A stretch of 64,000 nt of DNA from a virus (taxonomy: Duplodnaviria; Caudoviricetes). This document shows positions 13,581 through 63,170 of this stretch, one piece after another. The stretch's first letter is position 1. The number at the start of each line of letters is the position of its first letter. The notes under the pieces were generated by a model that searched no databases, had not been told where the DNA came from, and saw nothing but the letters and a program-made list of their open reading frames with translations. The translations under genes were made by a program, and so were the position numbers. Location: the IMG/VR virus record IMGVR_UViG_3300031088_000758, one strand, 5' to 3'.

Positions 13581-13600
13581 TTCAAAAGTTAAAGTTTGGT
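13380..13600 (+). ncRNA. Predicted TnpB omega/reRNA (scaffold at the right end, guide starting at 13581)
   Basis: Inferred from TnpB biology; GC-richer 3' end of tnpB. The 5' boundary is approximate. Confidence 0.5.
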
Positions 13601-14764: not shown

Positions 14765-16003
14765 TTGATGAATGAAAAAAATAAAAATCCACGAAAAGGT
14801 GTTCCCCGAAACAAAAGAGAATTTATAAAAACTCTTCCAATAGCTAAAGAATGGAACGATGAAAAATCAATTGATGATTACACAGCGGCAAGTGAGTATG
14901 AAGCACAATGGAAGTGCTTAGAATATGGACATATTTATACACTTGCTGTTAATCTTCGTGTTAGGCGCAAAAAACCCGCTTGTCCTTACTGCAATAATAG
15001 AAAAGTTTTAGAAGGTTTTAATGATTTGGCAACGATTCATCCTTATTTGCTTTCAGAGTGGAATGATGAAAAAGAACCAACAGAAGTTTTAGCAAATACA
15101 AACGATAAAATACAATGGAAATGTTTAGCTCATGGTCATAAGTGGAAAATTTCTCCATATAGCCGTATTAAATTTAATTCGAACTGTCCTTATTGCGGAA
15201 ACCAGAAATTGCTACAAGGATTCAATGATTTTGCTACGGTATATCCAGAAATTGCAAAAGAATGGCATCCAACAAGAAATGATACTAAACCTGATACTTT
15301 TATAATGAATTACGGTATTCAATATTGGTGGATATGTACAAAAAACCATGAATACAAAGCTACATGCAGACATAGAGCTGAAAGGAACCAAGGATGTCCG
15401 ATTTGTTCTGGCAGGCAAATTCTTGCAGGTTTTAATGACTTAGCTTCACAGCGTTCTGAGCTTATGAAAGATTGGGATTATTCACAAAATGCCCTTGATC
15501 CAACTAAAATCTCTGTTCATAGAAATGAAAAAGCACAATGGAAATGCTATATTTGCTCTCACAAGTGGGAAGCTTTAATAAGTAATAGATCAAGAGGTTT
15601 TGGATGCCCTAAATGTTCAGGGGCAATTTCAAAACAAGAAAAAACTTTGTTGAAGTTTATTAGAACAATGTTACCAGGAAAAGTTCTTGTTGTAGAAAAT
15701 GATAAGAAAATCATAAATCCAAAAGAAATAGATATTTTTATTCCTTCATTGAACATTGGATTTGAGTACAACGGATTGTACTGGCATGATAAAGAAAGCT
15801 ACCTAAACGATTTAAAAAATAACACTCAATTCAGCAATGAACGAGTGAAAGAAATCCTATGTGCAGAAAAAAATGTTAAACTCTTTCATGTATGGAGTGA
15901 TGAATGGTTGTTGAATGAGGATGAAACTCGCAAAAAAATAAAAATAATTATCAAAAATTCTTTAAACAATCTACCGGATTCCACCGTCAAAACTGTTTCT
16001 TGA
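14765..16003 (+). CDS. Zinc-ribbon-repeat protein with C-terminal PD-(D/E)XK/Vsr-like nuclease (putative homing endonuclease)
   Basis: Four WKC-H...CPxC repeats with GFNDLA linkers; EIDIFIPSLNIGFEYNGLYWH. Confidence 0.75.
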   Translation: MMNEKNKNPRKGVPRNKREFIKTLPIAKEWNDEKSIDDYTAASEYEAQWKCLEYGHIYTLAVNLRVRRKKPACPYCNNRKVLEGFNDLATIHPYLLSEWNDEKEPTEVLANTNDKIQWKCLAHGHKWKISPYSRIKFNSNCPYCGNQKLLQGFNDFATVYPEIAKEWHPTRNDTKPDTFIMNYGIQYWWICTKNHEYKATCRHRAERNQGCPICSGRQILAGFNDLASQRSELMKDWDYSQNALDPTKISVHRNEKAQWKCYICSHKWEALISNRSRGFGCPKCSGAISKQEKTLLKFIRTMLPGKVLVVENDKKIINPKEIDIFIPSLNIGFEYNGLYWHDKESYLNDLKNNTQFSNERVKEILCAEKNVKLFHVWSDEWLLNEDETRKKIKIIIKNSLNNLPDSTVKTVS

Positions 16004-18402: not shown

Positions 18403-19929
18403 ATGATTAGAATATATGCCCGTAATACTGAAGTTAAACGAATAGAAAACAATGAAGCACAAGAATTTGTTGAAACGCATCATTCACAAGGCGCTGCCAA
18501 AGGTAGTTTTAAAAAAGAATCATTAGGTTTATTTTCTTCTCATGAGTTAGTGGGAGTTGCTCAATTTTGCTCACCCCGAACTTCTGGTAAAAAATTAGAA
18601 TATACTACTGAACTATTAAGATTATGTTTTAAAAATGATGTACAGGTTATAGGTGGGGCTAGTAAACTTATTAAGTATTATATTGAAAAATATAATCCTG
18701 CGGATCTTTTCACGTATCAAGATACAACAGGAGACAATAGTGATGTGTATGAAAAATCAGGGATGAAGTTTGTTAAGCAATATAAAGATAAAAAATATCT
18801 CGTAGCTCCGGGGAAGACTTTTGCTACTGCTGATAGGAAAAGTAGAGAGATCCTTACATTCTCTTATGCTGTGAATATGGGGCCAGATAATATTCTTAAG
18901 ACAAAATTAGGTGAACAATTTTATAACAACGGAAGCCGAAAAAGCAATATAGATTTATTTTTGGAATTAGGGTGGAATATTGAAACCACCACGGGAGATA
19001 AAGTGTATGAATGGGTTAATCCAAATTTAAGTTTTTATACTTATAAAATAACCTCTACTGACTCAAAGAAATATTATTATGGCATGTCAAGTGTCAAAAA
19101 ACCTTTTAGAGATATCGCTATTAAAGATTGTTTAAATGATGGGTATTACGGCAGCGGTGGAAATACGTTGAAAAATAATAAATTTAAAAATTGGAAGAAG
19201 AAATATAAAAATACGCTAAAAAAAGAAATTATTCAAATTTTTGAAAGAAAGAGTCAAGCTTATGAACATGAGAAAAAAATAATTGGCGATTTATGGAAGA
19301 CAGATCCATTATGTTTAAATAGTTCTGCAGGTGGAGTTTATACTGGTTTTGGAAAGGGTTGGCGCGAAAATGTGTCTTTGAAAGAGTGTTCTATTCATGG
19401 TATGACTAAGCATCGTGGTAATGCTTGTTATAAGTGTTTTATGAACGAGCTAGTGTCTGTGAAAGTGTGCGAGATCCATGGTGAAACTAAATTTCAAGGT
19501 GAATCGTGTAGTAAATGCGCTGTGAGTAAAACTTTTGTTCAAAAAGAGTGTGAGATTCATGGTTTAACGACTTTTTCAGGAAATTATTGTAGAAAGTGTA
19601 GTGTTGCTAAAACTGTGGTTATGAAAGAGTGTAGTATTCATGGCATGACTAAACATCAAGGTAATGTGTGTAATTCTTGTAATGCTTTAAGTAGCATTTC
19701 TATTAAAACTTGTGAGGTTCATGGGGAGACTAAATTTGTGGGTGATAAATGTAGAAAGTGCATTTCTGCGAAGAACAATGCTTTGAAAGAGTGTGCTGTA
19801 CATGGTTTAGTTAATTATAGAGGTAATTCTTGCATGAAGTGTAGTGCTCAGAAGAGAAAGCATGTCAGGGGTCTACATGATGATAGCCCGGATCATCTGT
19901 GTTATATTTGTTTAGAAGGTAATACATGA
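18403..19929 (+). CDS. Modular putative homing endonuclease (GIY-YIG-like core plus six CxxHG...CxxC repeats)
   Basis: YTYKITSTDSKKYYYG...YYGSG...E...LN core; 27-aa Cys/His repeats at the C-terminus; lies between the topoisomerase subunit genes. Confidence 0.7.
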   Translation: MIRIYARNTEVKRIENNEAQEFVETHHSQGAAKGSFKKESLGLFSSHELVGVAQFCSPRTSGKKLEYTTELLRLCFKNDVQVIGGASKLIKYYIEKYNPADLFTYQDTTGDNSDVYEKSGMKFVKQYKDKKYLVAPGKTFATADRKSREILTFSYAVNMGPDNILKTKLGEQFYNNGSRKSNIDLFLELGWNIETTTGDKVYEWVNPNLSFYTYKITSTDSKKYYYGMSSVKKPFRDIAIKDCLNDGYYGSGGNTLKNNKFKNWKKKYKNTLKKEIIQIFERKSQAYEHEKKIIGDLWKTDPLCLNSSAGGVYTGFGKGWRENVSLKECSIHGMTKHRGNACYKCFMNELVSVKVCEIHGETKFQGESCSKCAVSKTFVQKECEIHGLTTFSGNYCRKCSVAKTVVMKECSIHGMTKHQGNVCNSCNALSSISIKTCEVHGETKFVGDKCRKCISAKNNALKECAVHGLVNYRGNSCMKCSAQKRKHVRGLHDDSPDHLCYICLEGNT

Positions 19930-23560: not shown

Positions 23561-24967
23561 ATGAGAAAAGAAAACTATCCGGGAGTTGAGTTTTTAGAAG
23601 AATTTTGGAATAAACAGAAAAACGGTATTTCTCTTATTGATGCCAAAATTGAAAATAAGTACAAATATTGGTGGTTTTGTCAAGATTTTGATCATTCTTT
23701 TAAAAAAGACATTCGTTTAATGCAGAAAGATCAAAAATGTCAAATTTGTAATGGAAAACAGCTATTGTCAGGTTTTAATGACTTCGAAACACTTAATAAA
23801 AAATATTTATATGAGTGGGACTATGAAAAAAACGCTGTTGGCCCCAGTGAAACTTATTATAGAACGACTAAGTCAATATTTTGGAAATGTACTTTAAAGC
23901 ATTCTTATATGGCTACCGCTTTTGACAAGATGAGAAATCGTGGGGGCTGTCCATATTGCAAAAATATGCGTGTGTTAAAAGGTTTTAATGATTTAGCTTC
24001 AAGGAATCCCGAATTATTAGTTGAATGGAATTATCAGTTAAACGAAAAATTGCCTGAGGAAATCACTTTCTGTAGCGGCGTTAAAGTCCATTGGATATGC
24101 CGAAAAGACAATAGACATAAGTGGGAAGAATCTCCGTTTTTTAGAACTAATAAAGATCGAAACTGGGGCTGTCCCTATTGTGCTGGAAAACGTGTTCTAG
24201 CTGGTGTTAATGATTTATCAACAACCCACCCTCATTGGTTAGATGAATGGGATTTTCAAAAGAACAGTAAGATTGGTTTGAAGCCTACTGAATATACGTA
24301 TGGAAGCTCAAAGGAAGCATATTGGTTATGCAAAGATTATGGACATTCTTGGAAAGTAGAAATTCAAGCACGAGTGAAATATGGTTGTCCTGTGTGTGCT
24401 AATCTTAAAGTTTTGCCAGGGTATAATGATTTTGCCTCACAGGCTCCAGTGTATCTTTTAGAAGAATGGAATTATAATAAAAATGATGTTAAACCCCATG
24501 AAATTTGTTTTAAGACAGACAGATCAGTATGGTGGATCTGCTCGAAAGGTCATTCTTATAGCATGTCTGTTTATAGTAGATCTGTAATGAATTATGGTTG
24601 TCGAAAATGTTCAAATAATGGTGTTTCTAAGATGGAGAAAAGTTTATTGAATTTTATCCAAACATTGTTGCCAATTCACAGCATTGAAGAGAATACAAGA
24701 AATGTTATTAAGCCCTATGAATTAGATATTTATATTCCTGATTTGAATCTTGCTTTTGAATTTAATGGCACTTATTGGCACAGTGATTCTATAATTTTCG
24801 CTCGTACTGGTATGTCAGCTGCTGAGTTCCATCGCATGAAAACAGACATGTGCGCAAAACTTGGCATTAAGTTGATACATATTTCTGAAAAACAGTGGAC
24901 TGAAAATAATAGCCAAGTTTTGCAGATGATTCAATTGGAAACAAAAAATTTATCCACATTGAGATGA
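23561..24967 (+). CDS. Zinc-ribbon-repeat endonuclease
   Basis: Five W(W)xC-H...CxxC repeats; ELDIYIPDLNLAFEFNGTYWHS. Confidence 0.75.
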   Translation: MRKENYPGVEFLEEFWNKQKNGISLIDAKIENKYKYWWFCQDFDHSFKKDIRLMQKDQKCQICNGKQLLSGFNDFETLNKKYLYEWDYEKNAVGPSETYYRTTKSIFWKCTLKHSYMATAFDKMRNRGGCPYCKNMRVLKGFNDLASRNPELLVEWNYQLNEKLPEEITFCSGVKVHWICRKDNRHKWEESPFFRTNKDRNWGCPYCAGKRVLAGVNDLSTTHPHWLDEWDFQKNSKIGLKPTEYTYGSSKEAYWLCKDYGHSWKVEIQARVKYGCPVCANLKVLPGYNDFASQAPVYLLEEWNYNKNDVKPHEICFKTDRSVWWICSKGHSYSMSVYSRSVMNYGCRKCSNNGVSKMEKSLLNFIQTLLPIHSIEENTRNVIKPYELDIYIPDLNLAFEFNGTYWHSDSIIFARTGMSAAEFHRMKTDMCAKLGIKLIHISEKQWTENNSQVLQMIQLETKNLSTLR

Positions 24968-29404: not shown

Positions 29405-31393
29405 ATGACTACTAAAAGCAATAGTAAGAGCATTGATGAGCTTGTTAAGGAATTGCCACAAGAGAAGCAAGCGATTCTGGAGCAATTTCGGGAAGATATG
29501 AAGAATTCTCCTATTCGCAAGCTGAACAAGTTGGAGCGAGACATTTGGGGTGCTTCAATCACACGTGCTATTGAGTATCTTCCTTCATTCCGAGATGCTA
29601 TTGCTGTACTTAGTCCTTATATGGACGCTTCATCTAGCACTGCTTATACAGATAAGTATGCTCGTGTTGGGCTTTCTTACTGGTTCTTTTACATTGCTGA
29701 TAATGACACAAGGGCTATTGCGTTGCTTCATGAATCAATGCATGTTCTGAATAACCATTTCGCTCGTGGTGCTAACAAGAATATCAAGCCTAGAATGATG
29801 AATATTTCTGGGGATCTTGAAATTAATTCAAATTTGTCTTTGCTTCCTGGTGCTAAAAAGATTCTTACGGATTTCCTTCTTCCTGATCATGAGAATTTTG
29901 GGTTCCCTTATCACAAAACCCTTGAGCAATATTCTATTTTGATTCAGGATAAGCTTAATGAGGAAGAAGAGCAAGAGGATTCAAACTCAAACCAGGAAAA
30001 CGGTGATGGTCAAGAAAGTTCTTCTGAAAATTCCGATCAGAGCGATTCTAGCTCAAATGATAATTCTGAATCCTCAAATGATAACTCTGAATCTGATTCC
30101 GCTGATAGTTCAAGTTCGTCTGATGGTTCAGATTCAAGCGCTGGTGATGAGAGTAGTCAAGAAGCTGGTGGAGAAGGTTCTTCCGATGATTCTAGTGATG
30201 GTGGTTCGGGTTCGGAAGGTTCACCTGATGGAGGTTCTCCTGGAGACTCTAATAATGGTCAAGAAGGTGGAGAAGGAGACAGCGGTTCTCAATCAGGCAG
30301 TGGCTATGGCAATGCTTATGATTCATTTGTGGAGGATTTGCTTGGGAGAAAAAAGAAAGGTTCTTCTAACTTGAAGGATCTACTTTCTGAGAATGAAAAT
30401 GGATCTGAAAAATGTAATGGAAATCATTCTGATAGTGGTGATGGTCAACAATGTGATGGAAGCTGCGACCATTCTAATGATAGTGATGAGAATGGTGATA
30501 GCAGTGGGGAAGGTTCTGGAGATTCGGGTAAAGGTTCTCTAAAAGATTCTCAAAAGAACAGCTCTTCTCAGGGGAAAGCACAACGTGTTCCTACTCCTTC
30601 ACGTAGTTGCGATAGAAACACTGATGCTAGATCAGAAGCAGCTGATAATGCGGAAATTGATAGAAGCTCTATTACTGAACAGAATATTGCCAGAAGGAAT
30701 ACTCGTGCGCGTGTTGTTGATGAGATTAACAACAACAAATCACGTGGAAATGGCTCTAATAATGAATTTTTGAAGGTTGTTTCAGCCCTTATGAGTCCAC
30801 CTAAGGTTGACTGGCAAGAGTTGTTCCGTAGAAAATTCAACGCTGCTTTCAATAATTCTGTTCGTGGTCGTTCGCATTTATCATATAAAAGAATTGATCG
30901 TAGAAGTCCTGGAAAAATAATCTTTCCAGGAAGGATTAGTTTCCAACCTAAGGCTATGATGGGTATTGACACTTCTGGCTCAATGGACAAGAGAGACTAT
31001 GAAGCTGTTTTGATTGAAGCTGAAGGAATCATGAAAAAAGGTCTACGTGCCAAAGGAGCTTTACAGGTATTTTCTGTGGACACAACAATCAAGAATATTG
31101 AACCTGTAAAAAATGTGAAAGACATTAACCTTTACGGTGGTGGAGGAACGGATATGAGCGTTGCTTTTGCTTACGTTAATATGCTACCTGTAAAAGAAAG
31201 ACCTAATATTTTAGTTCTAGGAACAGATGGTGGAACTGATTGGAATAGTATTATTCGTCAATTGCGAAAGTCTGAAGCTACGTATACTCCTATTATCTTG
31301 GTCACTACGAAGTACGGTTATGAATCAGTACCATCAGAATTGCATGAAATTGCTGCTGTGTTAGATGTTTCAGAAGGAAATAATTCTTTTTGA
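29405..31393 (+). CDS. Metallopeptidase-like plus VWA-domain protein (DUF2201-like)
   Basis: TAYTD, HESMH, DLEIN; long S/D/G linker; IDTSGSM MIDAS, GGGTD, TDG. Confidence 0.85.
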   Translation: MTTKSNSKSIDELVKELPQEKQAILEQFREDMKNSPIRKLNKLERDIWGASITRAIEYLPSFRDAIAVLSPYMDASSSTAYTDKYARVGLSYWFFYIADNDTRAIALLHESMHVLNNHFARGANKNIKPRMMNISGDLEINSNLSLLPGAKKILTDFLLPDHENFGFPYHKTLEQYSILIQDKLNEEEEQEDSNSNQENGDGQESSSENSDQSDSSSNDNSESSNDNSESDSADSSSSSDGSDSSAGDESSQEAGGEGSSDDSSDGGSGSEGSPDGGSPGDSNNGQEGGEGDSGSQSGSGYGNAYDSFVEDLLGRKKKGSSNLKDLLSENENGSEKCNGNHSDSGDGQQCDGSCDHSNDSDENGDSSGEGSGDSGKGSLKDSQKNSSSQGKAQRVPTPSRSCDRNTDARSEAADNAEIDRSSITEQNIARRNTRARVVDEINNNKSRGNGSNNEFLKVVSALMSPPKVDWQELFRRKFNAAFNNSVRGRSHLSYKRIDRRSPGKIIFPGRISFQPKAMMGIDTSGSMDKRDYEAVLIEAEGIMKKGLRAKGALQVFSVDTTIKNIEPVKNVKDINLYGGGGTDMSVAFAYVNMLPVKERPNILVLGTDGGTDWNSIIRQLRKSEATYTPIILVTTKYGYESVPSELHEIAAVLDVSEGNNSF

Positions 31394-34443: not shown

Positions 34444-36723
34444 ATGTCGGATGCTGGTACTTTGTATAAAATGGCTCAGAGGCGATTAGTTGCCACTTTA
34501 ATGTATGTTGGTCAAGGAGCTAATCAGGTTTTTGAGATTGTAAACCCTGAAGACATGGATGAGCCAGCATTAGAGCTAATATTGACTTCCATGGTGAATT
34601 TAACAAGAAGAAATGAAAGCATTAGCCCAATTTCTGTTGCTCGTGAATTAGAATCTTCGGGTAATTTGGATAAAGCTGGCGGAATTTCTGAACTTCACTC
34701 TCTACACTCAGAAGGTGAAAAATATAGTCTTGAAGCTCCTATTGAAATGTATGCGGAAATACTTAGGGATACTAGTGCAAAAACTAGAATTAACTTTGTT
34801 CTAGATGAATCTAAGCAGAATTTTAAAGATGATTCAGGAATAAGTACCGTAGATGCTGTGTCAGAGTTGCAGTCAATTCTAAATCAACAATTAGTTGGAT
34901 TATCAAATGAGTCAACAGTTACAAGAGTACAAGTTAATGCTCAATCATATGAAGAAAGAATTGAAGAGCGCAGAAGAATTAGTGAAGAGAACAAAGAACA
35001 AGCTGATGGACTGCAGGGAATCCCTTCATTACTTCCTACATTAAATAAATACACACACGGATGGGCACCTTCTCAAATGATAACTGTTGGTGCTAGAACA
35101 GGTGTAGGTAAAGCACTTAGTATTGACACCCCGATTTTGACATCACAAGGATGGAAGGATATGGGTGATATCGCAAAAGGTGATTTTGTTTATGGAAGAA
35201 ACGGTAAATTAACAAAGGTTCTCAATGTCACGGAACACCAGTACGAAAGAACAGTTTATGCAGTAAGTTTTAATAATGGTGAAAGAATATTAGCGGATGC
35301 TGATCATTTGTGGATTGTTGAAGACCCTGAAAGCCGAATCGGAAAAAGCGTTGAAAAAGTTTTGACAACAAAAGATATCTTAGATAATTTAATGTATTCA
35401 GACTACCAAGGTACTAAGAGACTATCTTATTCTGTAAGAATTTCAGAACCATTAATCAACAAACATAATGACAATCTTTCAAATCCGTATAATTTTGGAT
35501 TGCAATTAGCTGAAGGTTTTGTTAATTTTGCTCTTTTGGCTGAGGAAGATATGAATGTTGAAACGTATTTAAAAGAATTGATACTAAGTTCTTTTGAACA
35601 ACGTAATGATTTCGTTTCTGGTCTTATTGAATCTGAGAAAGATGATACTCCTTATTTGTATTTTGCTGATTTTGTAGTTGCGGATTCTATTCGCACTATT
35701 TTTAGTTCATTAGGGTATATGACATTTTTTGATTTTGATGAGGAATTTAATTCTTATCGTGTGTCTTTTTATTCACCTAATGAAAACATTTCAATAACTG
35801 GAAAATATTCAACGTATATTACGAATATTGAAGAAGTTGAAAGTGTTCCTGTAAAATGTATTGAAGTAGACAATGAAGATCATACTTATCTTGCTGGACA
35901 TTCTTTGATCCCTACACATAATAGTGTTTTTGCTGTGAATAACGCTGTGGCAGCTGCTCGTGCTGGAAAATCTGTTTTGTTTTTTACCTTGGAAATGGGT
36001 AATGATGAAATTGATGACAGAATCATTGCTTCAATGTCAGGTGTTTCAATGTCAAGGCTTAAAGAAGGTAATTTAAGCGATGAAGATAAGACATTAGTAA
36101 AAAAGAGTCTTGAAGAGTTAAAAGACATGAAAATCATGGTGGATAGTGATCCCAGAGTGAATGTTGACACTATTAGGGCACGAGCTTTCAAACAAGCACA
36201 ATCACCTGAAGGTTTAGACCTAGTTATTGTAGATTATTTACAGTTGATTTCACCTGCTGGTAGTTATTCAAGTAGGCAAGAAGCAGTTGCCGATATTTCG
36301 CGTAATATGAAACTTACAGCGAAAACTCTTGAAGTTCCTATTATAGTTCTTGTACAGCTAAATCGTGGAAAAGGTGATGATGAAGAGGAAAACAAGCTCC
36401 CATCACTAGACCATATTCGTGAATCAGGCTCTATTGCTATGGACTCTGACGTTGTTATTCTTCTTCACAGAGATGATACTTTTGATGACACAACACCTCA
36501 TACTCTTGTTATTTTGGATAAAAACCGTAATGGTGAGTCGCATAAAGTTATTAGATGTCATTCAAATCTTGAATGTTCTCTCTTCCGTGAAGTTAAGAGA
36601 GAGAAAGATGTGTCAGAAGAACGTTTGACAGATGAAGAAATGTCAGAACTTGAAGCGGACATTGATTTAGATGATTTTGATGGTTATGATTTAGATGACA
36701 ATGATTTAAGTTTAGATTTATGA
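34444..36723 (+). CDS. dnaB: Replicative DNA helicase DnaB containing an intein
   Basis: GARTGVGK|S P-loop, FTLEM, VDYLQL, QLNR, RESGSIAMDSD, KNRNGE. Confidence 0.95.
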   Translation: MSDAGTLYKMAQRRLVATLMYVGQGANQVFEIVNPEDMDEPALELILTSMVNLTRRNESISPISVARELESSGNLDKAGGISELHSLHSEGEKYSLEAPIEMYAEILRDTSAKTRINFVLDESKQNFKDDSGISTVDAVSELQSILNQQLVGLSNESTVTRVQVNAQSYEERIEERRRISEENKEQADGLQGIPSLLPTLNKYTHGWAPSQMITVGARTGVGKALSIDTPILTSQGWKDMGDIAKGDFVYGRNGKLTKVLNVTEHQYERTVYAVSFNNGERILADADHLWIVEDPESRIGKSVEKVLTTKDILDNLMYSDYQGTKRLSYSVRISEPLINKHNDNLSNPYNFGLQLAEGFVNFALLAEEDMNVETYLKELILSSFEQRNDFVSGLIESEKDDTPYLYFADFVVADSIRTIFSSLGYMTFFDFDEEFNSYRVSFYSPNENISITGKYSTYITNIEEVESVPVKCIEVDNEDHTYLAGHSLIPTHNSVFAVNNAVAAARAGKSVLFFTLEMGNDEIDDRIIASMSGVSMSRLKEGNLSDEDKTLVKKSLEELKDMKIMVDSDPRVNVDTIRARAFKQAQSPEGLDLVIVDYLQLISPAGSYSSRQEAVADISRNMKLTAKTLEVPIIVLVQLNRGKGDDEEENKLPSLDHIRESGSIAMDSDVVILLHRDDTFDDTTPHTLVILDKNRNGESHKVIRCHSNLECSLFREVKREKDVSEERLTDEEMSELEADIDLDDFDGYDLDDNDLSLDL
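35113..35922 (+). mobile_element. Class 3 intein (270 aa) in the DnaB P-loop
   Basis: Starts ALSIDTP (Ala1); ADADHLW, VKCIEVD, IPTHN|S give the W-C-T signature; eroded LAGLIDADG remnants. Confidence 0.9.
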
Positions 36724-55470: not shown

Positions 55471-56298
55471 ATGAAAAATACTGATAATGTTGCATCATCT
55501 GATTATGATGAAGGTCATGCTTTGACCAATGCGCATAGTAAGCCTAAAAAAGTTATTGAAAAAGTTGTGGATGGGAAAAAGACGAAAATAATAATTGAAA
55601 AAAATTATCCTTTACGTAATGGTGTTATAGGTTTTGCTTCGTTCCCTTTGCTTATGATGTTCAGTGTCATTTTTGTTATACCTTTTGTGTTTTTAAACGC
55701 TTTTACTTTTGCTACTGGTTTGATTTTGACGATTGCTGCTGAAATTACAACTATTTTAATAGCTTTGAAATATACTGATTCGTTGAAAGATTGGAGAACA
55801 AAATTAAGATTGCGTAATTTCGGGTGGAAAACTTTGCTTCTTGGGTTTGTTCTAGGTATATTCATGTACCTTCTGCTTCAAGCGTTGGCTATTATTTCAG
55901 CTTCATTAGGTTTCCCTGTTCAATCATCTGAGACTAGTGTTTCTTTGGGTGGCTTAGCTGGTTGGGAAAGAGTAATACTACTCTATATTGCAGCACCTTT
56001 TATTGTTCCTATGATTGAGGAAATTTTTTTCAGAGGATACACAATGGGATTCATTCAAGATGCTTTTAAAAACCCTAAGATTGGAGCATGGGTTGGTGTT
56101 ATTGTATCTTCTCTTGTTTTCGGTTTAGCGCATGTTCAAGGCTTTAGTAGTTATGGGGATATATTCTTAGTCTGCTGGACAACAATAATCGCTTTTGTTA
56201 ATGCTTTGTTAATGTTGAAGTTCAAATCTTTGTATCCTTCTTTTGCTTTGCATATGGGGTACAACGGTATTACCGTATTATCAACTATCTTCCTATGA
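55471..56298 (+). CDS. CPBP (CAAX/Abi) intramembrane metalloprotease
   Basis: EEIFFRG, FGLAH, HMGYN. Confidence 0.9.
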   Translation: MKNTDNVASSDYDEGHALTNAHSKPKKVIEKVVDGKKTKIIIEKNYPLRNGVIGFASFPLLMMFSVIFVIPFVFLNAFTFATGLILTIAAEITTILIALKYTDSLKDWRTKLRLRNFGWKTLLLGFVLGIFMYLLLQALAIISASLGFPVQSSETSVSLGGLAGWERVILLYIAAPFIVPMIEEIFFRGYTMGFIQDAFKNPKIGAWVGVIVSSLVFGLAHVQGFSSYGDIFLVCWTTIIAFVNALLMLKFKSLYPSFALHMGYNGITVLSTIFL

Positions 56299-56392
56299 TT
56301 TAAATTTTCTCAGCGTTTTTAAAGTTTCTAAAATATGTTTAAGGCCCCTGGCTCATAAAACGAGGTTTTACAAAAAACTTTTCAAATAAACA

Positions 56393-56445
56393 AATTTACC
56401 CTCCTAAAAGCTTGCTATTTAACGAAGCTTTTAGGAGGGTAAATT
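56393..56445. terminator. 21-bp perfect inverted repeat between convergent genes
   Basis: aatttaccctcctaaaagctt / aagcttttaggagggtaaatt, 11-nt loop. Confidence 0.7.
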
Positions 56446-56512
56446 GTAAGCGATTATCAGGCTTAGAGAGATTATAAATATTTCTTTAAATTTAATCGAA
56501 TTAATGTTTATT

Positions 56513-57085
56513 TTAACACTTTGATTGTACCCTATTCACTTTTGTTTCTTCACGTATCTTTTTGAGCAATCTTAGTCTATCTTCTAACTGTTGTATTTCA
56601 TTATCTCCGTAGTACAGATAATGCAACCTTCGAGAGCGTTTCTTGTCTTTATATATGTCTTTTCGTAATTCTTTCAAATAAACTGAGAAAGGTTGACGTA
56701 TGTTATTTTGGTGTAAGTAGAAATGGTATTTATCGTGTGAAAGAGTAGGGTGTTCTTTATGTGTAAAGCGGATATACCCATTATCTAATGTTTCAATAGT
56801 ATAATCATTAAAATCTTTAATAAAGATCCAATTGAAATGTCCGCGACCAGTGTTTATGTAAGATAATGTTTGTGTTGAATCTTTTATCGGATTATAGTAT
56901 CGTAAATTACCGTTTTTGTCTTCTATTGCATTGTATGATTTTTTTGCAAGGTTCAAACATACTTGTTGTAATTCTGAAATTCTTTTTACAACATCTCTTA
57001 TCGTTAAATCATGTGTGTAGGACTGGTGGGGAGCTTCATCCTTAATGATGAACTTTGTAGTACTGGTTTCTTTAACATTGTTCAT
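56513..57085 (-). CDS. Hypothetical protein (last gene of the tRNA-pth operon)
   Basis: ATGA overlap with the upstream gene. Confidence 0.65.
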   Translation of the reverse strand: MNNVKETSTTKFIIKDEAPHQSYTHDLTIRDVVKRISELQQVCLNLAKKSYNAIEDKNGNLRYYNPIKDSTQTLSYINTGRGHFNWIFIKDFNDYTIETLDNGYIRFTHKEHPTLSHDKYHFYLHQNNIRQPFSVYLKELRKDIYKDKKRSRRLHYLYYGDNEIQQLEDRLRLLKKIREETKVNRVQSKC

Positions 57086-57672
57086 TTTTTAATCTCTTTC
57101 TTGTAGTTTTCTTTTTGTGTCATTTCTTGTATGATTCTTGAAGCTTTTTGTTCTTGTTGAACCGTAATTTTTTCTTGAATTTTTTGTAGTTTTTGGTTTT
57201 CTCTGAGCAATTTTTCAATCATTTTTTCATTTTTTTTGATTTCTGAGACAGAGTTTTTACGAGTTTCTTCCTTCACTCTATCATTATGTTGTTTAATTTT
57301 TTGACGAATAAGTTTTGCGAAATCCCTATCACTCATATGGAAGAATTTGCGGGGAACTTTGAACTTCTTTACCTTGTCAGTGTTTCCGAGAAAGTATTCA
57401 AATTCAAAAATTTCTTCATAGGACGAAAAAGAATGTACTTTAAATCGTTGTATGTAATATAAGTTGAGTGTGAGGAATGAAAAATCATTTTCAAAAATTT
57501 TGTTTTTTGTCTCAAGGTCAACGTTTAACTTCCTCAAAATACTATTTGAAATAAGTATAAGATTTTCTACTTTTTTGTAAAGTAATTTATTAAATACACT
57601 CATTCTTTTTTCAATTTGTGCTTTTTCTTCTTGTAGCTTATTTATCTCTTTGAACTGTGATTTTATATTCAT
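57082..57672 (-). CDS. Hypothetical coiled-coil protein
   Basis: ATGA overlap; SDRDFAKLIRQKIKQH shared with its neighbour. Confidence 0.65.
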   Translation of the reverse strand: MNIKSQFKEINKLQEEKAQIEKRMSVFNKLLYKKVENLILISNSILRKLNVDLETKNKIFENDFSFLTLNLYYIQRFKVHSFSSYEEIFEFEYFLGNTDKVKKFKVPRKFFHMSDRDFAKLIRQKIKQHNDRVKEETRKNSVSEIKKNEKMIEKLLRENQKLQKIQEKITVQQEQKASRIIQEMTQKENYKKEIKK

Positions 57673-58202
57673 GATGCTTGACCTGATTTCTTTTTCATTT
57701 TATACATATGATTAATTTCGCTTTCCAAAGCGTTTAAAGATTTTGTTTTATGTTTGAGGATTTCATCAAAATTTTGTAAAGTATTTTGTTGCTTTTGAAT
57801 TTTATGTTTTTTAATTTGCTGTCTGACTAATTTAGCAAATTCTCTGTTGCTAAGCTTTAACAATGATTGGGGAATATCCTGAATAAAGTCTTCGTTTCTT
57901 GACCTTGATAAAGTTCTTTTACGAAGGATAATCTCTATATAGTCATTATTTATACTTTGAATGCCAAAACGATATGCTGGTCTTATTGCTTCAGTATAAT
58001 TCAACCATTCTAGTTCTTCAGTGTGTATATTATTGTAATAATAAATACGGTTGTTTTTTCCAAAAGATTTTTTTCGTATTGAATTAGCTATACACATCAT
58101 TTCATGAAGCTTTTTGTTATAAAAATTCTCAATTTCGTAAATTTTTTCTTTACAATCGTTGTAATTATTAATCATTTGTTGGGTTTTAGTGTTATTTTTC
58201 AT
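57669..58202 (-). CDS. Hypothetical coiled-coil protein
   Basis: ATGA overlap with the pth stop; SNREFAKLVRQQIKKH. Confidence 0.65.
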   Translation of the reverse strand: MKNNTKTQQMINNYNDCKEKIYEIENFYNKKLHEMMCIANSIRKKSFGKNNRIYYYNNIHTEELEWLNYTEAIRPAYRFGIQSINNDYIEIILRKRTLSRSRNEDFIQDIPQSLLKLSNREFAKLVRQQIKKHKIQKQQNTLQNFDEILKHKTKSLNALESEINHMYKMKKKSGQAS

Positions 58203-58579
58203 TGTTCTACCTCTTCTTCGTTGTGGAAAGATTTACCAGCCAAAGGAAGGCGTGACAATAATCTCCGATTAGCTGTATGTGGTACAAACGCTAAAGAGGT
58301 GATTGAGTAATTTAAATCAGGTTCTCGGAAACATATAACATCGAGTTTTTTGTTTTGCGCTTCTTCATATAATTCTACAAGGGATTTTTCATCTTGTGTT
58401 TCAAGCGCAACTATATATTGGCTATTATTGTGCCATTTTGAGAATTCATTTGGTCTATAAATAGAAAAATCAGCGATAGCATGACTTATCTGAGCGATTT
58501 TATAGCCAGAAGTCAGATCACTGTGTGTAATTAAGTAGAGGGGTAATCTTGATTTGTTAGATTCGTAAGCCTAGGTCAT
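58199..58579 (-). CDS. PTH2-family peptidyl-tRNA hydrolase with in-frame TAG at codon 3 (not in ORF track)
   Basis: AAAGGA SD, then ATG ACC TAG, then open to TGA: MT*AYESNKSRLPLYLITHSDLTSGYKIAQISHAIADF...YIVALE...CFREPDLNYSITSLAF...LSRLPL; 127 codons including stop. Confidence 0.85.
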
Positions 58580-58634
58580 TTTGAGTATTTCCTTTTCAGT
58601 AGTGTTAGTGTTTAGTGAAAATATTTTATTTTCG

Positions 58635-58706
58635 TGCTTCTGGTCAGAATTGAACTGACTAATAGCGGGTTTAGAGTCCGCTGCTTATCCATTTAGCATC
58701 AGAAGC
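58635..58706 (-). tRNA. tRNA with CUA anticodon (amber suppressor); CCA not encoded
   Basis: GCTTCTG-AT-GCT AAATGGATA AGC-A-GCGGA CTCTAAA CCCGC-TATTA-GTCAG TTCAATT CTGAC-CAGAAGC-A; perfect acceptor and T stems. Confidence 0.9.
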
Positions 58707-58741
58707 ATAGTAAAAAATGCCATTTTTAACATCTTTTACTA

Positions 58742-58770
58742 ATTATATCAAAAGATTATTTATTTGTCAA
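58742..58770 (-). promoter_or_regulatory. Perfect consensus sigma70 promoter for the tRNA-pth operon
   Basis: TTGACA-17 nt-TATAAT with extended TG. Confidence 0.85.
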
Positions 58771-58773
58771 ATA

Positions 58774-59337
58774 TCAAGCCATGGATCCTAGTATGATAAT
58801 AAATACAAAGAAAACAAACCATAGAACTATAAAGAATAACTGAATACCAGAAACAATCAAGCCTACTAGCGAAAGTGTTTTTCCAGTAGAATCATTAGTG
58901 TTTTTTGATTCGTTATATCCCATCCAAGAAAGTATTAATCCTACTGGAAAGAATATAAAGCTGAATATTAAGCCTAATAATGCTTTAATATTCAGTTCTT
59001 GGTTTGGAGCACTATAGCTTGAAGAGTAGGAACTCGAAGCCGTTCCTGGCTGTGTCCATTCTGGCGCGTTGTATTGTGCCTGTGGCGGGTTTTCTTCGTA
59101 TGGGTCAGAAGAAGGGCTATTATGGCTTGTAGGCTCGTTTTGAGAGGTATGAGAAGTCTCTGGTGAAGAACCTATACTATCTGAATAATTGTCAGGGTAA
59201 GAATTCGGTTGTACATAAGATGGTGCTGAATTCGCTGAGCTAAACATTTCATTATCATAATTTGGTAAATTTTGAGGAGTATGATTTTCTTTATTCGTGC
59301 TCTCACCATTGTTGTTATATGTATTGGGTTGTGTCAT
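58774..59337 (-). CDS. DUF4190-like membrane protein
   Basis: P/S/Y-rich N-terminus; ALLGLIFSFIFFPVGLILSWMG...GKTLSLVGLIVS. Confidence 0.75.
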   Translation of the reverse strand: MTQPNTYNNNGESTNKENHTPQNLPNYDNEMFSSANSAPSYVQPNSYPDNYSDSIGSSPETSHTSQNEPTSHNSPSSDPYEENPPQAQYNAPEWTQPGTASSSYSSSYSAPNQELNIKALLGLIFSFIFFPVGLILSWMGYNESKNTNDSTGKTLSLVGLIVSGIQLFFIVLWFVFFVFIIILGSMA

Positions 59338-59387
59338 ATATTCCTCCTTAATTGATTATAAAGTTATGTTTTGTAATATCTTTAAAA

Positions 59388-59717
59388 TCAATTATATTCG
59401 CCAATGTAGTCTTCTTTGTTGATTTTTTCAATTTCATTCAGGTTTTTTCGAGAATTATTGTTTAATTCTTTAAACTCTTCTATTAATTGAATTGCTGTTG
59501 CCTTAATATCTGAAGGTTGAGTTACCTCTAGCAAACTATCAGTCATATAATTGCTTGTTCTTGTATTATAGAATTCGGGCAATGGTCTGGGAATAATCGC
59601 ACTGAGGATAGCTTCTTTTGTGTCATTCCTCCGTAGCGACATGATCAACCATCCTTTGCCAAAATTCTCTATTTTAAAATAATGGTTTTCTGGTGGTTTT
59701 TCAATTACTAATTGCAT
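59388..59717 (-). CDS. Hypothetical protein
   Basis: ORF after an AAAGGA SD (MQLVIEK...). Confidence 0.55.
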   Translation of the reverse strand: MQLVIEKPPENHYFKIENFGKGWLIMSLRRNDTKEAILSAIIPRPLPEFYNTRTSNYMTDSLLEVTQPSDIKATAIQLIEEFKELNNNSRKNLNEIEKINKEDYIGEYN

Positions 59718-59728
59718 TTTTCGTCCTT

Positions 59729-60469
59729 TCATGATGATTGGCGAAGTGGTGGATAAATTTCTTTAGCATTACCTGCTTTGTAAAGTTGAGATTCTCTGCC
59801 ACCTTCAATTTTTGATGAACGTTTGTCATCAACGGATTCAAGTAAGTGAGGAACGCTTTGGATTTTTCGTCTAAAGTTGCTTGGAACAATTTTTTCGCCC
59901 CAGACGATTTCGTATACTTTTCTAAGTTCGCTAATTGTAAAAGTATCATCATCTAAGAAATGGTGAGCCACAGGTGCGTACTCAATTTTTGATCTGACTC
60001 GGTTTAGTCCATCTTCTATAATTGTTTTATGGTCAAATGCTAATTCAAAATCTTCAAGAACGTCTTCCACAGCAAAGAAACGCGCTTCATCAGCATCATC
60101 TCCAGCTTTAGGTGTGCTAGCATGAGGAATAAGAGCTACATAGGCTGTTGATATGACGTATCCACGAGGATCCCGAACTGGGCTTCCGTATGTCTTTAAT
60201 TGTTCAAGATATCCATCAGCAATTTTTAAATTAGTTTCTTCGACTAATTCACGAGCAGCAGCTTCATCGAGATTTTCTTTTGTATCTACAAAACCACCAG
60301 GTAATGCCCATTTTCCTTTGTGTGGATGTCCTCCGCGCTTTACAAGAAGTATAGATAGTTGATTATTCCTGATTGTAAAGATAGCAAGATCAACAGTACC
60401 AGCAATAGTAGGATATTTGCTCATATCGTAATTTTTAAGAAACTCTTCTTCTGTGATTTCGGTGTTCAT
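59729..60469 (-). CDS. nrtR: NrtR-type Nudix hydrolase / winged-helix regulator
   Basis: WALPGGFV...AAARELVEETNL Nudix box, EQLKTY...RDPR, LAFDH, FTISELRKVYE...NFRRK. Confidence 0.88.
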   Translation of the reverse strand: MNTEITEEEFLKNYDMSKYPTIAGTVDLAIFTIRNNQLSILLVKRGGHPHKGKWALPGGFVDTKENLDEAAARELVEETNLKIADGYLEQLKTYGSPVRDPRGYVISTAYVALIPHASTPKAGDDADEARFFAVEDVLEDFELAFDHKTIIEDGLNRVRSKIEYAPVAHHFLDDDTFTISELRKVYEIVWGEKIVPSNFRRKIQSVPHLLESVDDKRSSKIEGGRESQLYKAGNAKEIYPPLRQSS

Positions 60470-60499
60470 TGTAATTCTCCGTATCTTCGATTTATCTGA

Positions 60500-61024
60500 T
60501 CAGTATACTTTAGTTTTGTTAATAATATTGTCTTTGTTTAAAATCCAGAAATTTGCTTGTATGTATCGAGATTTTTCAACTTTAAAAATTCTTTTCCATG
60601 ATTCTTCTTTAAGGTTTCCAGTAAGATTGAAATAATATTCGAAGGATTCTTCATCATCCTCATTTTCTGGGATACCTATGTCGTTTAACACATAATGCCA
60701 TTTGTCAAAGTCAGATAATAAAACTTCTTTATCAGGTATTTCAACTTCTAATATGTAATCATTTTTTGTCAAATTTTTGTAATATGAAGTTCTTCTATCT
60801 ATTTTATAAGGTTTTCCACGATAAGTGTGCCATGCCCATATAGGATAGGTTATTTCTTCGTTGCTTTTGGGAATTGAAGAATTCATTATTTTGGATAACC
60901 ATTTATAAGAGTTTTCAAATTCGCATTCTTGAATAAGTTCTGATTTTTCTGGATCACATATGAAATAATTCTTTTCATCAATTTCTTGAATTACTGCTTC
61001 GGGTTGAATAGTGAATAGTCTCAT
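60500..61024 (-). CDS. DUF3841-like protein
   Basis: LFTIQP, YPIWAW, VLLSDFDKWHYVLN, SWKRIF, IQANFW. Confidence 0.75.
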   Translation of the reverse strand: MRLFTIQPEAVIQEIDEKNYFICDPEKSELIQECEFENSYKWLSKIMNSSIPKSNEEITYPIWAWHTYRGKPYKIDRRTSYYKNLTKNDYILEVEIPDKEVLLSDFDKWHYVLNDIGIPENEDDEESFEYYFNLTGNLKEESWKRIFKVEKSRYIQANFWILNKDNIINKTKVY

Positions 61025-61206
61025 TCTAAACCTCCGTCATCAATACCTTTCCAGTAGGGTATTGATGATTGCGATTTTATTTCTTCATGCCATTTTATAT
61101 GTTGTTTTCGAGCGGGAGTTATTGATCCACATATCAAACATATGAACAGCTTAGTTTCTTTCTCCGTTTTTGGGTTTATCTTAGGAAGTTCTTTAAACTC
61201 AACCAT
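61021..61206 (-). CDS. Small Zn-finger-like protein
   Basis: CLICGS...HIKWH. Confidence 0.55.
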   Translation of the reverse strand: MVEFKELPKINPKTEKETKLFICLICGSITPARKQHIKWHEEIKSQSSIPYWKGIDDGGLE

Positions 61207-61221
61207 ATCACAATCACAACC

Positions 61222-61767
61222 TTATTCGTTATTCATTTTCCTATTATCATCAATTTTTTGTTGAATCTCTTTGTAGATTTCAGGATCAAATTCAGGAATA
61301 TTTAATTCATGGTTTTTGAAAATATTAGTTCTTTCTTCCATTATAAGTATTTCTTCATGTGCTTTTTGTACATTGTTAGCAAGCTCAAAAGATTGTCCAA
61401 AGTTTCCTTCGTTAACGTATTTAGTGTATTGCGCGAATACTTCATTAAAATTATTCAATGTTTTTTCAGAGTCAAGTTTAGGGTCATAATTGATATGAAT
61501 CAAAACTTGTTTAACAGCGTCTTCTTTTACCCCAGAAGCACCATTCGGTAGTCTTACTATTTGTTCTAGTCCATGTTTTGCAATTAGTGGTTTGAGAAGG
61601 TGTGGAAAATTAGTTTCTTCATTTGGAAAAGTATCAATGTTTACACCTATCCATCCACAGGAACAAGAAGGATGGTATTGAGGAGGTTCTCCCCATCCAA
61701 GTACATTTATAACTGCTTTGTGCTGAGAATCGTTGCTTATGTATTCATTGTTGGACATTTTTACCAT
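61222..61767 (-). CDS. Hypothetical protein
   Basis: CSCGW motif; AAGGA SD. Confidence 0.6.
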   Translation of the reverse strand: MVKMSNNEYISNDSQHKAVINVLGWGEPPQYHPSCSCGWIGVNIDTFPNEETNFPHLLKPLIAKHGLEQIVRLPNGASGVKEDAVKQVLIHINYDPKLDSEKTLNNFNEVFAQYTKYVNEGNFGQSFELANNVQKAHEEILIMEERTNIFKNHELNIPEFDPEIYKEIQQKIDDNRKMNNE

Positions 61768-61789
61768 CCTTCTTGTTCCTGTTTTATGC

Positions 61790-62365
61790 TCAGATTACTT
61801 TAATGCCGTTTTCAGGAAGATCGTAATCTAATGAGTTATCCACTCGATCTGAATCAATCCCCACAGTATAATCAGACCAAACAGTTGTATTAAATCCTTC
61901 TTGAGCTGCATCAAGAGCTGTAGCTTTTACACAATGCTCAGTAGCAATTCCTACAACAGTTACATCAGATACTTCAAGGACACGAAGAACTTCGGTTAGA
62001 GTTTGTCCCTCTACTGTCTGTCCCTCAAATCCTGAGTAAGCAGCTTCGTACATTCCTTTACGAATATTGATATGAGGAACAGATTCTAAAGCCTTCTGTA
62101 AAACTGGCACAATTTCTGAGCCTTTTTCTTCGGCAACACAATGAACCGGCCAGGTGTCCACAAAATCAGGATTCTCGGAGAAATGTGTTCCTGGGTCAAT
62201 ATGCCAGTCTTGAGTAACTACAATGTGATCAAACATCTTTTGGAAAGTGTGAGGAACTTTGTCTGCTAAACGCTCAGCAACAAGTGTTCCACCATCAACA
62301 GCCAATGAACCACCCTCAACAAAATCATTTTGGACATCTACAATAATAAGCGCATTTTTAGTCAT
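61790..62365 (-). CDS. pncA: Nicotinamidase
   Basis: VDVQNDF, DWH, WPVHC, K, GIATEHCV. Confidence 0.93.
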   Translation of the reverse strand: MTKNALIIVDVQNDFVEGGSLAVDGGTLVAERLADKVPHTFQKMFDHIVVTQDWHIDPGTHFSENPDFVDTWPVHCVAEEKGSEIVPVLQKALESVPHINIRKGMYEAAYSGFEGQTVEGQTLTEVLRVLEVSDVTVVGIATEHCVKATALDAAQEGFNTTVWSDYTVGIDSDRVDNSLDYDLPENGIKVI

Positions 62366-62415
62366 GATAATTTATCTCCTTTTTAAATTAAACAATAATA
62401 TATTTTTATATTTTC

Positions 62416-62640
62416 TTACATTTCTTCGATGTAGTCATCCATATAAGACCTAAGCAAACTCAAATCAGAACGTAAATTTTCGTATTTTTCTGTAATTTGT
62501 TTAACAAGTTCAAAGAATTCTGGGTTCTCTTCTTCTTCAAGCATTGTATGATTCATACCGTATTCTGTAAAACCATAATCTATACCTTCATATTCAAGTT
62601 TGCTACAGAAGTCTCGAACACTCATCTTTGCATCATTCAT
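62416..62640 (-). CDS. Small hypothetical protein
   Basis: 74 aa, GGAG SD, ATGA overlap. Confidence 0.6.
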   Translation of the reverse strand: MNDAKMSVRDFCSKLEYEGIDYGFTEYGMNHTMLEEEENPEFFELVKQITEKYENLRSDLSLLRSYMDDYIEEM

Positions 62641-63170
62641 TGAGTCAGCCTCTCCTTCGTCCAGTCAATAATCTTTACAATATCCTTTTTAGTAAGCCCC
62701 ACACGTCCATTCGTATGAATAATTAATGGTAGCTCCCTAAAATGACCTCTGATGTAATCACCCCAGAAGAAAGGTGCTAAATCATCAATCCAAATAAAAG
62801 GACGAGGGTTTTTAGCTTGATCTTCTAGAATATATTCAGCTTTCCAACGAGTCCACTCCATCTTGCTTCCAGCATCTTTGTTAAGAACTGCTTCAGTGTG
62901 TTCAGAAAGGTTCTTAAATCCCATGATTTCTGAAGCTTGTACAATGTTGCTACCATCATTCCAAGTAGTATGCCAAACAAAATCATACAAACCTGTTTCC
63001 AGTAGTTCAGACATGCTCTTCACAACCTCTGGATTCCACTTGATTTCATCCTTGTTTCGTAGAAAATGACTATTTTCAATTTCAATGGTTGCTGAAGCGG
63101 TTGCTGAACTATCAGAAACGTTAAAGACACCATCAAAATCAGAATAAATAACAATCTTAGCAGATTTCAT
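62637..63170 (-). CDS. HAD-superfamily phosphatase (RNA-repair-like HAD)
   Basis: DFDGVFN, WHTTW, WK, WIDD, GLT. Confidence 0.8.
   Translation of the reverse strand: MKSAKIVIYSDFDGVFNVSDSSATASATIEIENSHFLRNKDEIKWNPEVVKSMSELLETGLYDFVWHTTWNDGSNIVQASEIMGFKNLSEHTEAVLNKDAGSKMEWTRWKAEYILEDQAKNPRPFIWIDDLAPFFWGDYIRGHFRELPLIIHTNGRVGLTKKDIVKIIDWTKERLTQ

Follow-up and report, generated by a model that had tools for sequence, protein, structure and literature searches.

An early amber codon and a linked UAG-reading tRNA in a Pth2-like gene family of large phages and phage-like elements: a candidate translational gate

The 64,000-nucleotide (nt) stretch of DNA analyzed here (hereafter the window) belongs to the IMG/VR virus record IMGVR_UViG_3300031088_000758 (Duplodnaviria; Caudoviricetes) and carries on its minus strand a compact cassette, in which a tRNA with the anticodon CUA, that is, a tRNA reading the amber codon UAG, is followed by a gene for a Pth2-fold protein whose third codon is TAG. 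The anatomy of this cassette can be read directly from the DNA, it is conserved in relatives, and the protein has no other way to be started. We propose that the synthesis of the Pth2-like enzyme is licensed by amber suppression, a reading to which we assign a probability of approximately 0.7; the enzyme is probably made only while its early stop is overridden.

The cassette begins with a sigma-70-type promoter (58770-58742, minus strand, as are all features of the cassette) that matches the consensus TTGACA-17-TATAAT at 12 of 12 positions, carries a TG before the -10 box, and is the sole 12/12 site of this type in the scanned region 56300-59500. The promoter is followed by the tRNA gene (58706-58634, 72-73 nt), which it is driving, probably together with the genes behind the tRNA. 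A spacer of 54 nt (58633-58580) separates the tRNA from the next start codon and contains a ribosome-binding site AAGGA (58594-58590); no terminator-like site was detected between the tRNA and the Pth2-like gene, and the two apparently form the same transcription unit. The gene opens with ATG ACC TAG (58579-58571), i.e., a start codon (58579-58577), a threonine codon, and the amber codon (58573-58571). Past the TAG the frame runs on as GCT TAC and stays open for 123 sense codons up to a TGA (58201-58199), which overlaps the ATG of the following gene as ATGA; the TAG is the sole in-frame stop before this TGA. With UAG read as sense, the gene (58579-58199) encodes 126 amino acids. Since the next in-frame ATG, GTG, or TTG lies 104 codons downstream of the TAG, the full Pth2-like protein can be made only through UAG read-through. 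An earlier note on this DNA, made from the letters and open reading frames (ORFs) alone, had described the promoter, the tRNA, the Shine-Dalgarno sequence, the ATG ACC TAG start, and the 123-codon frame on the minus strand, and all of them were found where it had placed them; its conclusion that the protein needs UAG read-through was likewise borne out, given the distance of 104 codons to the next start and the cognate tRNA just upstream.

The assignment of the tRNA is supported by two tools. An ARAGORN run of the kind proposed in the earlier note recovered a tRNA with a CUA anticodon at 58706-58634/5, and the Rfam tRNA model matched the same segment end to end, over all 71 positions, with 50.3 bits (cut-off 29). 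The tRNA has the pair G1-C72, discriminator A, the canonical GG in the D-loop, the T-loop UUCAAUU, and a 5-nt variable loop, along with A8, an A31-C39 mismatch, and no encoded CCA. Compensatory changes in the anticodon stem and in the T-stem are seen across the five members of its clade, i.e., the window and its four closest homologues (L002-L005). A permissive Rfam scan of 57500-59500 for ribozymes and other RNAs returned the tRNA only, plus a sub-threshold antisense echo of it.

The same TAG letters occur in the Logan contig, an independent assembly of the probable source run. A second phyllosphere run, which belongs to a separately listed study, yielded a contig that spans 58522-58672 and for which no difference is listed at the TAG. 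The homologues L002-L005, all from public assemblies, share 66-79% protein identity with the window protein and repeat its layout: a promoter with a TTGAC(A/T) -35 box 5' of the tRNA, a tRNA(CUA) unchanged in its acceptor stem, approximately 60-70 nt of spacer, AAGGA, and ATG-NNN-TAG. Their gates read ATG CAA TAG, ATG TCA TAG (in two of them), and ATG ACG TAG, with codons 2 and 4 variable, and the AAGGA is located 8-10 nt 5' of the ATG in all five clade members. Two of these four homologues are on record as proteins only by virtue of a source that translates TAG as Gln. The leader between promoter and tRNA contains an inverted repeat, GATAGAT...ATCTATC, in some of these relatives (L003:930-985, L005:2200-2243, and L002:6755-6799); it is not evident in the leader of the window.

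At larger distances, 87 distinct homologous sequences were collected from IMG/VR, JGI metagenomes, GenBank records of huge phages, and one metagenome-assembled genome (MAG). An in-frame TAG is present at codons 2-10 in 80 of them, most commonly at codon 3 (38 lineages), codon 4 (19 lineages), or codon 5 (12 lineages), and precedes the core motif T-[RH]-x-D-L-x-x-G-Y by 6-19 codons in 79 of the 80 and by 37 codons in L075. Anywhere in the remaining ~110 codons, TAG was found in 5 sequences only. As a control, TAG falls within the first 10 codons of 24/283 flanking ORFs (8.5%), a value that errs on the high side since the count takes in some non-coding DNA upstream, and it makes up 0.16% of the flank codons. 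Six homologues lack an early stop, and one more (L001) starts after its TAG; neither those six nor L001 has Gln at the gate position, and the protein is thus independent of that residue. Taken with the free variation of the residues that flank the stop, this indicates selection on the stop codon rather than on an amino acid. Conservation of the early TAG in homologues, one of the checks proposed in the earlier note, therefore shows the TAG to be real and selected. In one homologue (L068:573-640) TAA replaces TAG at codon 3 (ATG AAG TAA GTT AAT), and this short contig may represent an ochre-gated variant. A separate observation concerns the GC-rich huge phage L009 (LR745208.1 4231-10533), in which the Pth2-like gene has no early stop and a tRNA with the ochre-reading anticodon UUA (3399-3475) follows the gene after ~30 nt.

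The base 3' of the TAG is a purine in 79/80 lineages, and a purine after an amber codon favors suppression in E. coli. The complete codon after the TAG is ATT in 56 of the 80 lineages, ATA in 2, ATC in none, and GTA or GTT in 13, whereas the clade of the window has GCT, ACA, or GCA at this place.

The pairing of the early TAG with a suppressor tRNA extends far beyond the window element, as a translational gate predicts. Within the short flanks of the homologue contigs, to which the count is limited, a tRNA(CUA) on the same strand and at a distance of at most 3 kb was detected in 32 of the 81 lineages whose core is preceded by an in-frame TAG, a set that includes L001. It is often the sole tRNA present and often lies directly upstream of the Pth2-like gene (46-160 nt) or directly after it; in L142, two tRNA(CUA) genes are located behind the gene. 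There is wide sequence variation among the 40 distinct suppressor tRNAs, whose discriminator base can be A, G, C, or U, and this diversity fits a gate codon placed in a flexible tail where any residue is acceptable. A megablast search of 56000-62000 against phages and a tblastn search against plasmids gave no match. Among 185,579 species genomes of cellular organisms scanned, there was one match, a 78-kb contig of a Bacteroidota MAG, presumed to be phage DNA, in which the gene starts with MK-TAG and two CUA tRNAs stand behind it.

The assignment of the protein to the Pth2 fold, suggested in the earlier note, is supported by profiles and by a structural model. The read-through product matches the Pfam family PTH2 (PF01981) with 30.8 bits (cut-off 23; E = 3.7e-7), five other homologues score between 21.3 and 37.9 bits, four of them over the cut-off, and a profile search against the PDB retrieved 2zv3 (E = 7.6e-8). 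The AlphaFold model has a predicted local distance difference test (pLDDT) score of 88.5, and the best 14 Foldseek matches of this model are all chains of the Pth2 family, with template modeling (TM) scores of 0.55-0.74, including 2zv3, 1q7s, 3erj, and 1xty (TM 0.65-0.74). In the model, the fold begins near residue 14, and residues 1-8, which include the UAG position, have pLDDT below 50 and are predicted to be disordered; consequently, whichever amino acid the tRNA carries should be tolerated there. The amber-interrupted family has the invariant residues T18, G25, Y26, H33, W49, F84, E86, P87, D88, and T94. In one clade (L012:2989-3903, L013:2947-3885, and also L014 and L029) the amber-gated Pth2-like domain carries a C-terminal fusion of ~190 amino acids with an H-D-C-G-K motif, and the extensions of L012 and L013 match no Pfam family.

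The window covers that part of a large phage-like element which serves replication and nucleotide metabolism, and it is densely coded under the standard code. Among its products are topoisomerase II, a UvsX-like recombinase, DnaB, a sliding clamp, RNA ligase, ribonucleotide reductase, RecG, and many homing endonucleases. The 53 ORFs of at least 100 amino acids end in TGA (38) or TAA (15) and never in TAG; TGA is thus the commoner stop in spite of a G+C content of only ~34%. The Pth2-like gene is the only window ORF that combines an early TAG with the lack of a close later start and of an overlap with another gene, and no other gene within the 64 kb requires TAG as a sense codon. Other early TAGs (29333, 40994, 42208, 36377, 61573, antisense) were considered and set aside, as they are part of promoter or ribosome-site sequence, are followed immediately by a start codon, or fall within other genes.

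Two complete genomes carry the gate. The first is that of the cultured Yersinia phage fHe-Yen9-04 (LT960551.1, 354 kb), whose 440 ORFs end in TAA (344), TGA (88), or TAG (8). Its Pth2-like ORF (289115-289453; L110:2974-3312) starts with ATG TCT CAC TAG ATT and is the only credible early-TAG gene without a later start. The single tRNA(CUA) of this phage is located at 292524, ~3 kb downstream of the gene. The ORF lies in the gap between g407 and g408 and is unannotated; the early in-frame TAG has thus left the Pth2-like gene out of the annotation of at least one published phage genome. Records of related Serratia and Erwinia phages likewise have no annotated feature under the tblastn match. The second genome, LR745206 (634 kb), also uses the standard code, with TAG as the stop of 65/797 ORFs, and again the Pth2-like gene is its only credible early-TAG gene. 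An ad hoc scan of LR745206 yielded one candidate, an 81-nt segment (LR745206.1 507339-507419; L216:7339-7419) with a CUA anticodon, a perfect 7-bp acceptor stem, and a 6-bp D stem; it resembles tRNA-Sec, its best Rfam model at 28.5 bits (under the cut-off of 47), and was missed by ARAGORN.

The cassette can be understood as a two-part translational gate that would work as follows. The strong promoter would transcribe the UAG-reading tRNA and the Pth2-like gene on one RNA, and ribosomes initiating at ATG-ACC-UAG would meet the UAG at the third codon. As long as release factor 1 (RF1) wins there, a dipeptide would be released at almost no cost. Once the tRNA had been excised from the transcript, charged, and accumulated to an abundance sufficient to outcompete RF1, the 126-amino-acid enzyme would be made, and three translationally coupled downstream genes might be made after read-through as well. 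The gate codon would sit in the disordered N-terminal tail, where any tRNA-borne amino acid could be accommodated. The element appears to have rid its gene ends of TAG, so that its own suppressor would do it no harm. Overall, such an arrangement would constitute a coherent feed-forward gate of the AND type. As for the role of the product, our best guess, held with far less confidence than the licensing of its synthesis, is that the enzyme removes peptidyl-tRNA or otherwise N-blocked aminoacyl-tRNA building up in the infected cell when UAG read-through perturbs translation. The ideas in the earlier note that Pth output would report RF1 availability or suppressor charging, and that it could counter tRNA-acetylating GNAT toxins, are speculative, and the latter gained no support in the analysis; any role of the fMet-Thr minigene product would likewise be hypothetical.

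Several observations speak against licensing by amber suppression or against parts of it. The canonical catalytic residues of archaeal Pth2, which we take from work on S. solfataricus to be the Lys of a G-K motif and the Asp of a D-A-G motif, are replaced in this family: the HMMER alignment to 2zv3 puts the invariant Tyr26 (of G-Y-Q/K) at the position of the Lys and the Glu86 of the invariant E-P-D at the position of the Asp. Owing to these changes, peptidyl-tRNA hydrolase activity is presumptive and the name holds at the level of the fold; the PTH2 pattern that the earlier note had called established is retained as far as the fold and the Pfam match (30.8 vs. 23 bits) are concerned, and not in the catalytic Lys and Asp positions, which are Tyr and Glu. 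The tRNA is unusual in its A8, its A31-C39 mismatch, and the missing CCA, and the non-CUA tRNAs closest to it by similarity are a low-scoring scatter of Lys, Leu, and Arg tRNAs. ARAGORN found no CUA tRNA in the whole genome of LR745206, nor at the loci around the best tRNA-model matches (a subset of the matches) of LR756504 and LR756502, all three of which have the early TAG, and the gate may therefore not always need a tRNA encoded by the element. A strong suppressor should be costly for a host that uses TAG stops. The expression, processing, and charging of the tRNA and the read-through at UAG are deduced from sequence; the sequencing runs listed as containing this DNA are of DNA or of unknown kind, with no RNA run among them. 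Finally, with ATT behind the TAG in 56/80 lineages, termination followed by re-initiation at AUU is possible in those clades; ATT is known as the non-canonical start codon of E. coli infC.

The missing tRNAs and the AUU codons would be accommodated if the ATG-NNN-TAG mini-ORF were an attenuator or leader at which translation normally terminates, the protein trickling out by near-cognate read-through or re-initiation so that a harmful enzyme is kept low and the tRNA(CUA) is unneeded. The early TAG without a CUA tRNA detectable by ARAGORN in LR745206 (whole genome), LR756504, and LR756502 (fetched tRNA loci) would fit such a case, and so would the ordinary use of TAG as a stop in LR745206 (65/797 ORFs). 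However, the clade of the window has GCT, ACA, or GCA after the stop, which excludes re-initiation at AUU there, and offers no usual start before the first strand of the fold; in 13 other lineages the codon is GTA or GTT. Moreover, the tRNA(CUA) adjoins the gene in many independent lineages, often as the sole tRNA, which is hard to explain if it is irrelevant, and we consider an attenuator unlikely. We regard as possible, though still improbable, that the tRNA(CUA) does not serve to decode the element's own genes, in which no other TAG stands, but is a take-over tool that runs host ribosomes through host UAG stops, to which the TAG-free element is immune; the enzyme, and perhaps the three coupled proteins, would then be its companions, required only after this disturbance had set in, and the early UAG a sensor that licenses enzyme synthesis in proportion to the suppression occurring in the cell. 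If so, the cassette would represent a code-tampering module, self-referential and widespread among giant phages and phage-like elements, that precedes full recoding.

That TAG has been reassigned genome-wide (as in code 15), being an ordinary sense codon without any special role in the cassette and the window a standard-code early region, is very unlikely. Such a reassignment would account for the absence of TAG from the stops of the 53 window ORFs, for the presence of Pth2-like homologues in huge uncultured phages, and for the standard-code appearance of the window, as Borges et al. (bioRxiv 10.1101/2021.08.26.457843) describe the replication genes of recoded phages as free of in-frame stops. 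Yet in the 64 kb seen of this larger element, code 11 gives dense coding, and TAG has to be read as sense in a single gene. If TAG were a neutral sense codon, it would change to CAA or CAG over time, but it is kept in 80/87 homologues while the flanking residues and the codon number vary, and it is nearly absent from the rest of the Pth2-like gene; furthermore, both whole gate-carrying genomes, fHe-Yen9-04 and LR745206, use the standard code. The two remaining explanations have almost no probability left. A lone in-frame stop is what most often marks a pseudogene, but a sequencing or assembly error is contradicted by the identical letters in the source-run Logan contig and by the second-study phyllosphere contig with no change listed at the TAG, and decay by a stop conserved in more than 80 diverged homologues that otherwise keep an open frame and invariant fold residues; error and nonsense inactivation are refuted for practical purposes. 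The insertion of pyrrolysine or another non-canonical amino acid at the UAG is brought to mind by the ARAGORN label tRNA-Pyl, which reflects the CUA anticodon alone. The general tRNA model matched end to end, with the canonical D-loop GG and the T-loop UUCAAUU, no PylS or pyrrolysine-biosynthesis family was found among the scanned window proteins, and the relatives carry suppressor tRNAs of greatly differing sequence, all of which makes this explanation extremely improbable.

The Pth2-like gene is followed by three tandem paralogous genes (58202-56513, minus strand) encoding 177, 196, and 190 amino acids, which overlap with it and with each other by ATGA and are possibly co-gated with it via translational coupling. 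The three proteins have an MSDRDFAK-type motif in common, and members of the same family (166-201 amino acids) are located 3' of the Pth2-like gene in L002-L005, in tandem in L002:7325-8405 and L005:2908-4010. The paralogues have no match in Pfam or in the PDB, and their best atlas score (0.80) is to unnamed clusters. A confident model (pLDDT 83) consists of a long helical hairpin and a three-stranded sheet, and Foldseek returned nothing under E = 0.5 for it.

On its other side, the cassette adjoins a block resembling NAD salvage (59729-63170, minus strand) that comprises an NrtR-type Nudix protein with a winged helix, DUF3841, an isochorismatase/PncA-like protein, and HAD_SAK_2; the corresponding block of L002 (L002:1264-6340) additionally contains NAPRTase and NAD synthase. 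Elsewhere on the plus strand, large HNH/homing-endonuclease-like genes (13504-16003, 18403-19929, 23561-24967, and 29405-31393) are interspersed among the genes for the two subunits of topoisomerase II and for RNA ligase. Residues ~200-370 of a DnaB-like helicase of 759 amino acids (34444-36723, plus strand) also match PHROGs of the terminase large subunit; the insertion of an intein or of a nuclease-like segment may account for this.

In phages, the recoding of stop codons is usually viewed as a change of the code of a whole genome. Here, the same parts would form a minimal circuit in standard-code genomes, and the cassette may mark a first step toward recoding. If the proposed gating is correct, it provides a natural example of tRNA-licensed translation, and since there are cultured carriers, such as the Yersinia phage fHe-Yen9-04, Serratia phage BF, and the Erwinia pEa_SNUABM phages, the idea is directly testable. 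Natural systems with related logic are known. The Streptomyces tRNA-Leu(UAA) encoded by bldA licenses a few targets with rare TTA codons, such as adpA, and is thus similar in that a dedicated tRNA licenses a target gene through a codon avoided elsewhere in the genome; it differs in that the codon is a rare sense codon, no release factor competes, and the gene for the tRNA lies apart from its targets. The prfB gene for RF2 has an early in-frame UGA, which is escaped by a +1 frameshift and lets RF2 sense its own activity. Like the Pth2-like gene, prfB is a translation-related gene with an early in-frame stop that ties synthesis to the state of termination, although decoding of the Pth2-like gene would stay in the same frame past the stop, and feedback of the enzyme on read-through is not seen. 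The lambda bar minigenes are two-codon ORFs that cause peptidyl-tRNA drop-off, and ATG-ACC-TAG is formally such a minigene placed ahead of a Pth-fold protein; however, the number of codons before the stop ranges from 1 to 9 among the relatives.

The closest published parallels concern recoded phages, jumbo-phage PTH2, and synthetic circuits. Borges et al. (bioRxiv 10.1101/2021.08.26.457843) proposed that recoded stops and phage suppressor tRNAs act in the post-transcriptional regulation of late genes, and reported standard-code relatives that had already acquired a suppressor tRNA. In the recoded phages (TAG as Gln, code 15; Lak, crAss-like, and others), 26-71% of genes (clade means), chiefly those for structure and lysis, contain in-frame stops. 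The window element resembles these phages in that an element-borne tRNA(CUA) is brought into a standard-code host, TAG has been lost as a stop, and an in-frame TAG creates dependence on the tRNA. It departs from them in that a single in-frame stop, placed among the first ten codons, is confined to one small gene family, and the genomes otherwise follow the standard code. The word "hydrolase" is absent from that preprint. PTH2 of jumbo phages was described by Iyer, Anantharaman, Krishnan, Burroughs, and Aravind (2021; PMC7824862), who proposed that it hydrolyzes peptidyl-tRNA in ribosome rescue after tRNA damage. The protein family and the kind of genome are the same as here; in the searched passages of that article neither an in-frame TAG nor a linked suppressor tRNA comes up, and its lone "amber" stands in the reference list. 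The earlier note knew of no description of a coupling between tRNA(CUA) and pth, and full-text literature searches, together with the passages of Borges et al. and Iyer et al., similarly revealed neither the early in-frame TAG of the Pth2-like family nor its link to a suppressor tRNA, the concept of regulation by stop codons being published (10.1101/2021.08.26.457843). Stop-codon recoding as a form of regulation is known, whereas these searches brought up no account of the minimal coupling of one tRNA, one stop, and one gene family. The same logic has been built by design: in a synthetic feed-forward loop (PMC7969014), a suppressor tRNA removes leaky expression, and a promoter drives both an amber-interrupted gene and the suppressor tRNA, giving an AND-like, thresholded output. 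That circuit was engineered, whereas the cassette of the window is natural and ancient.

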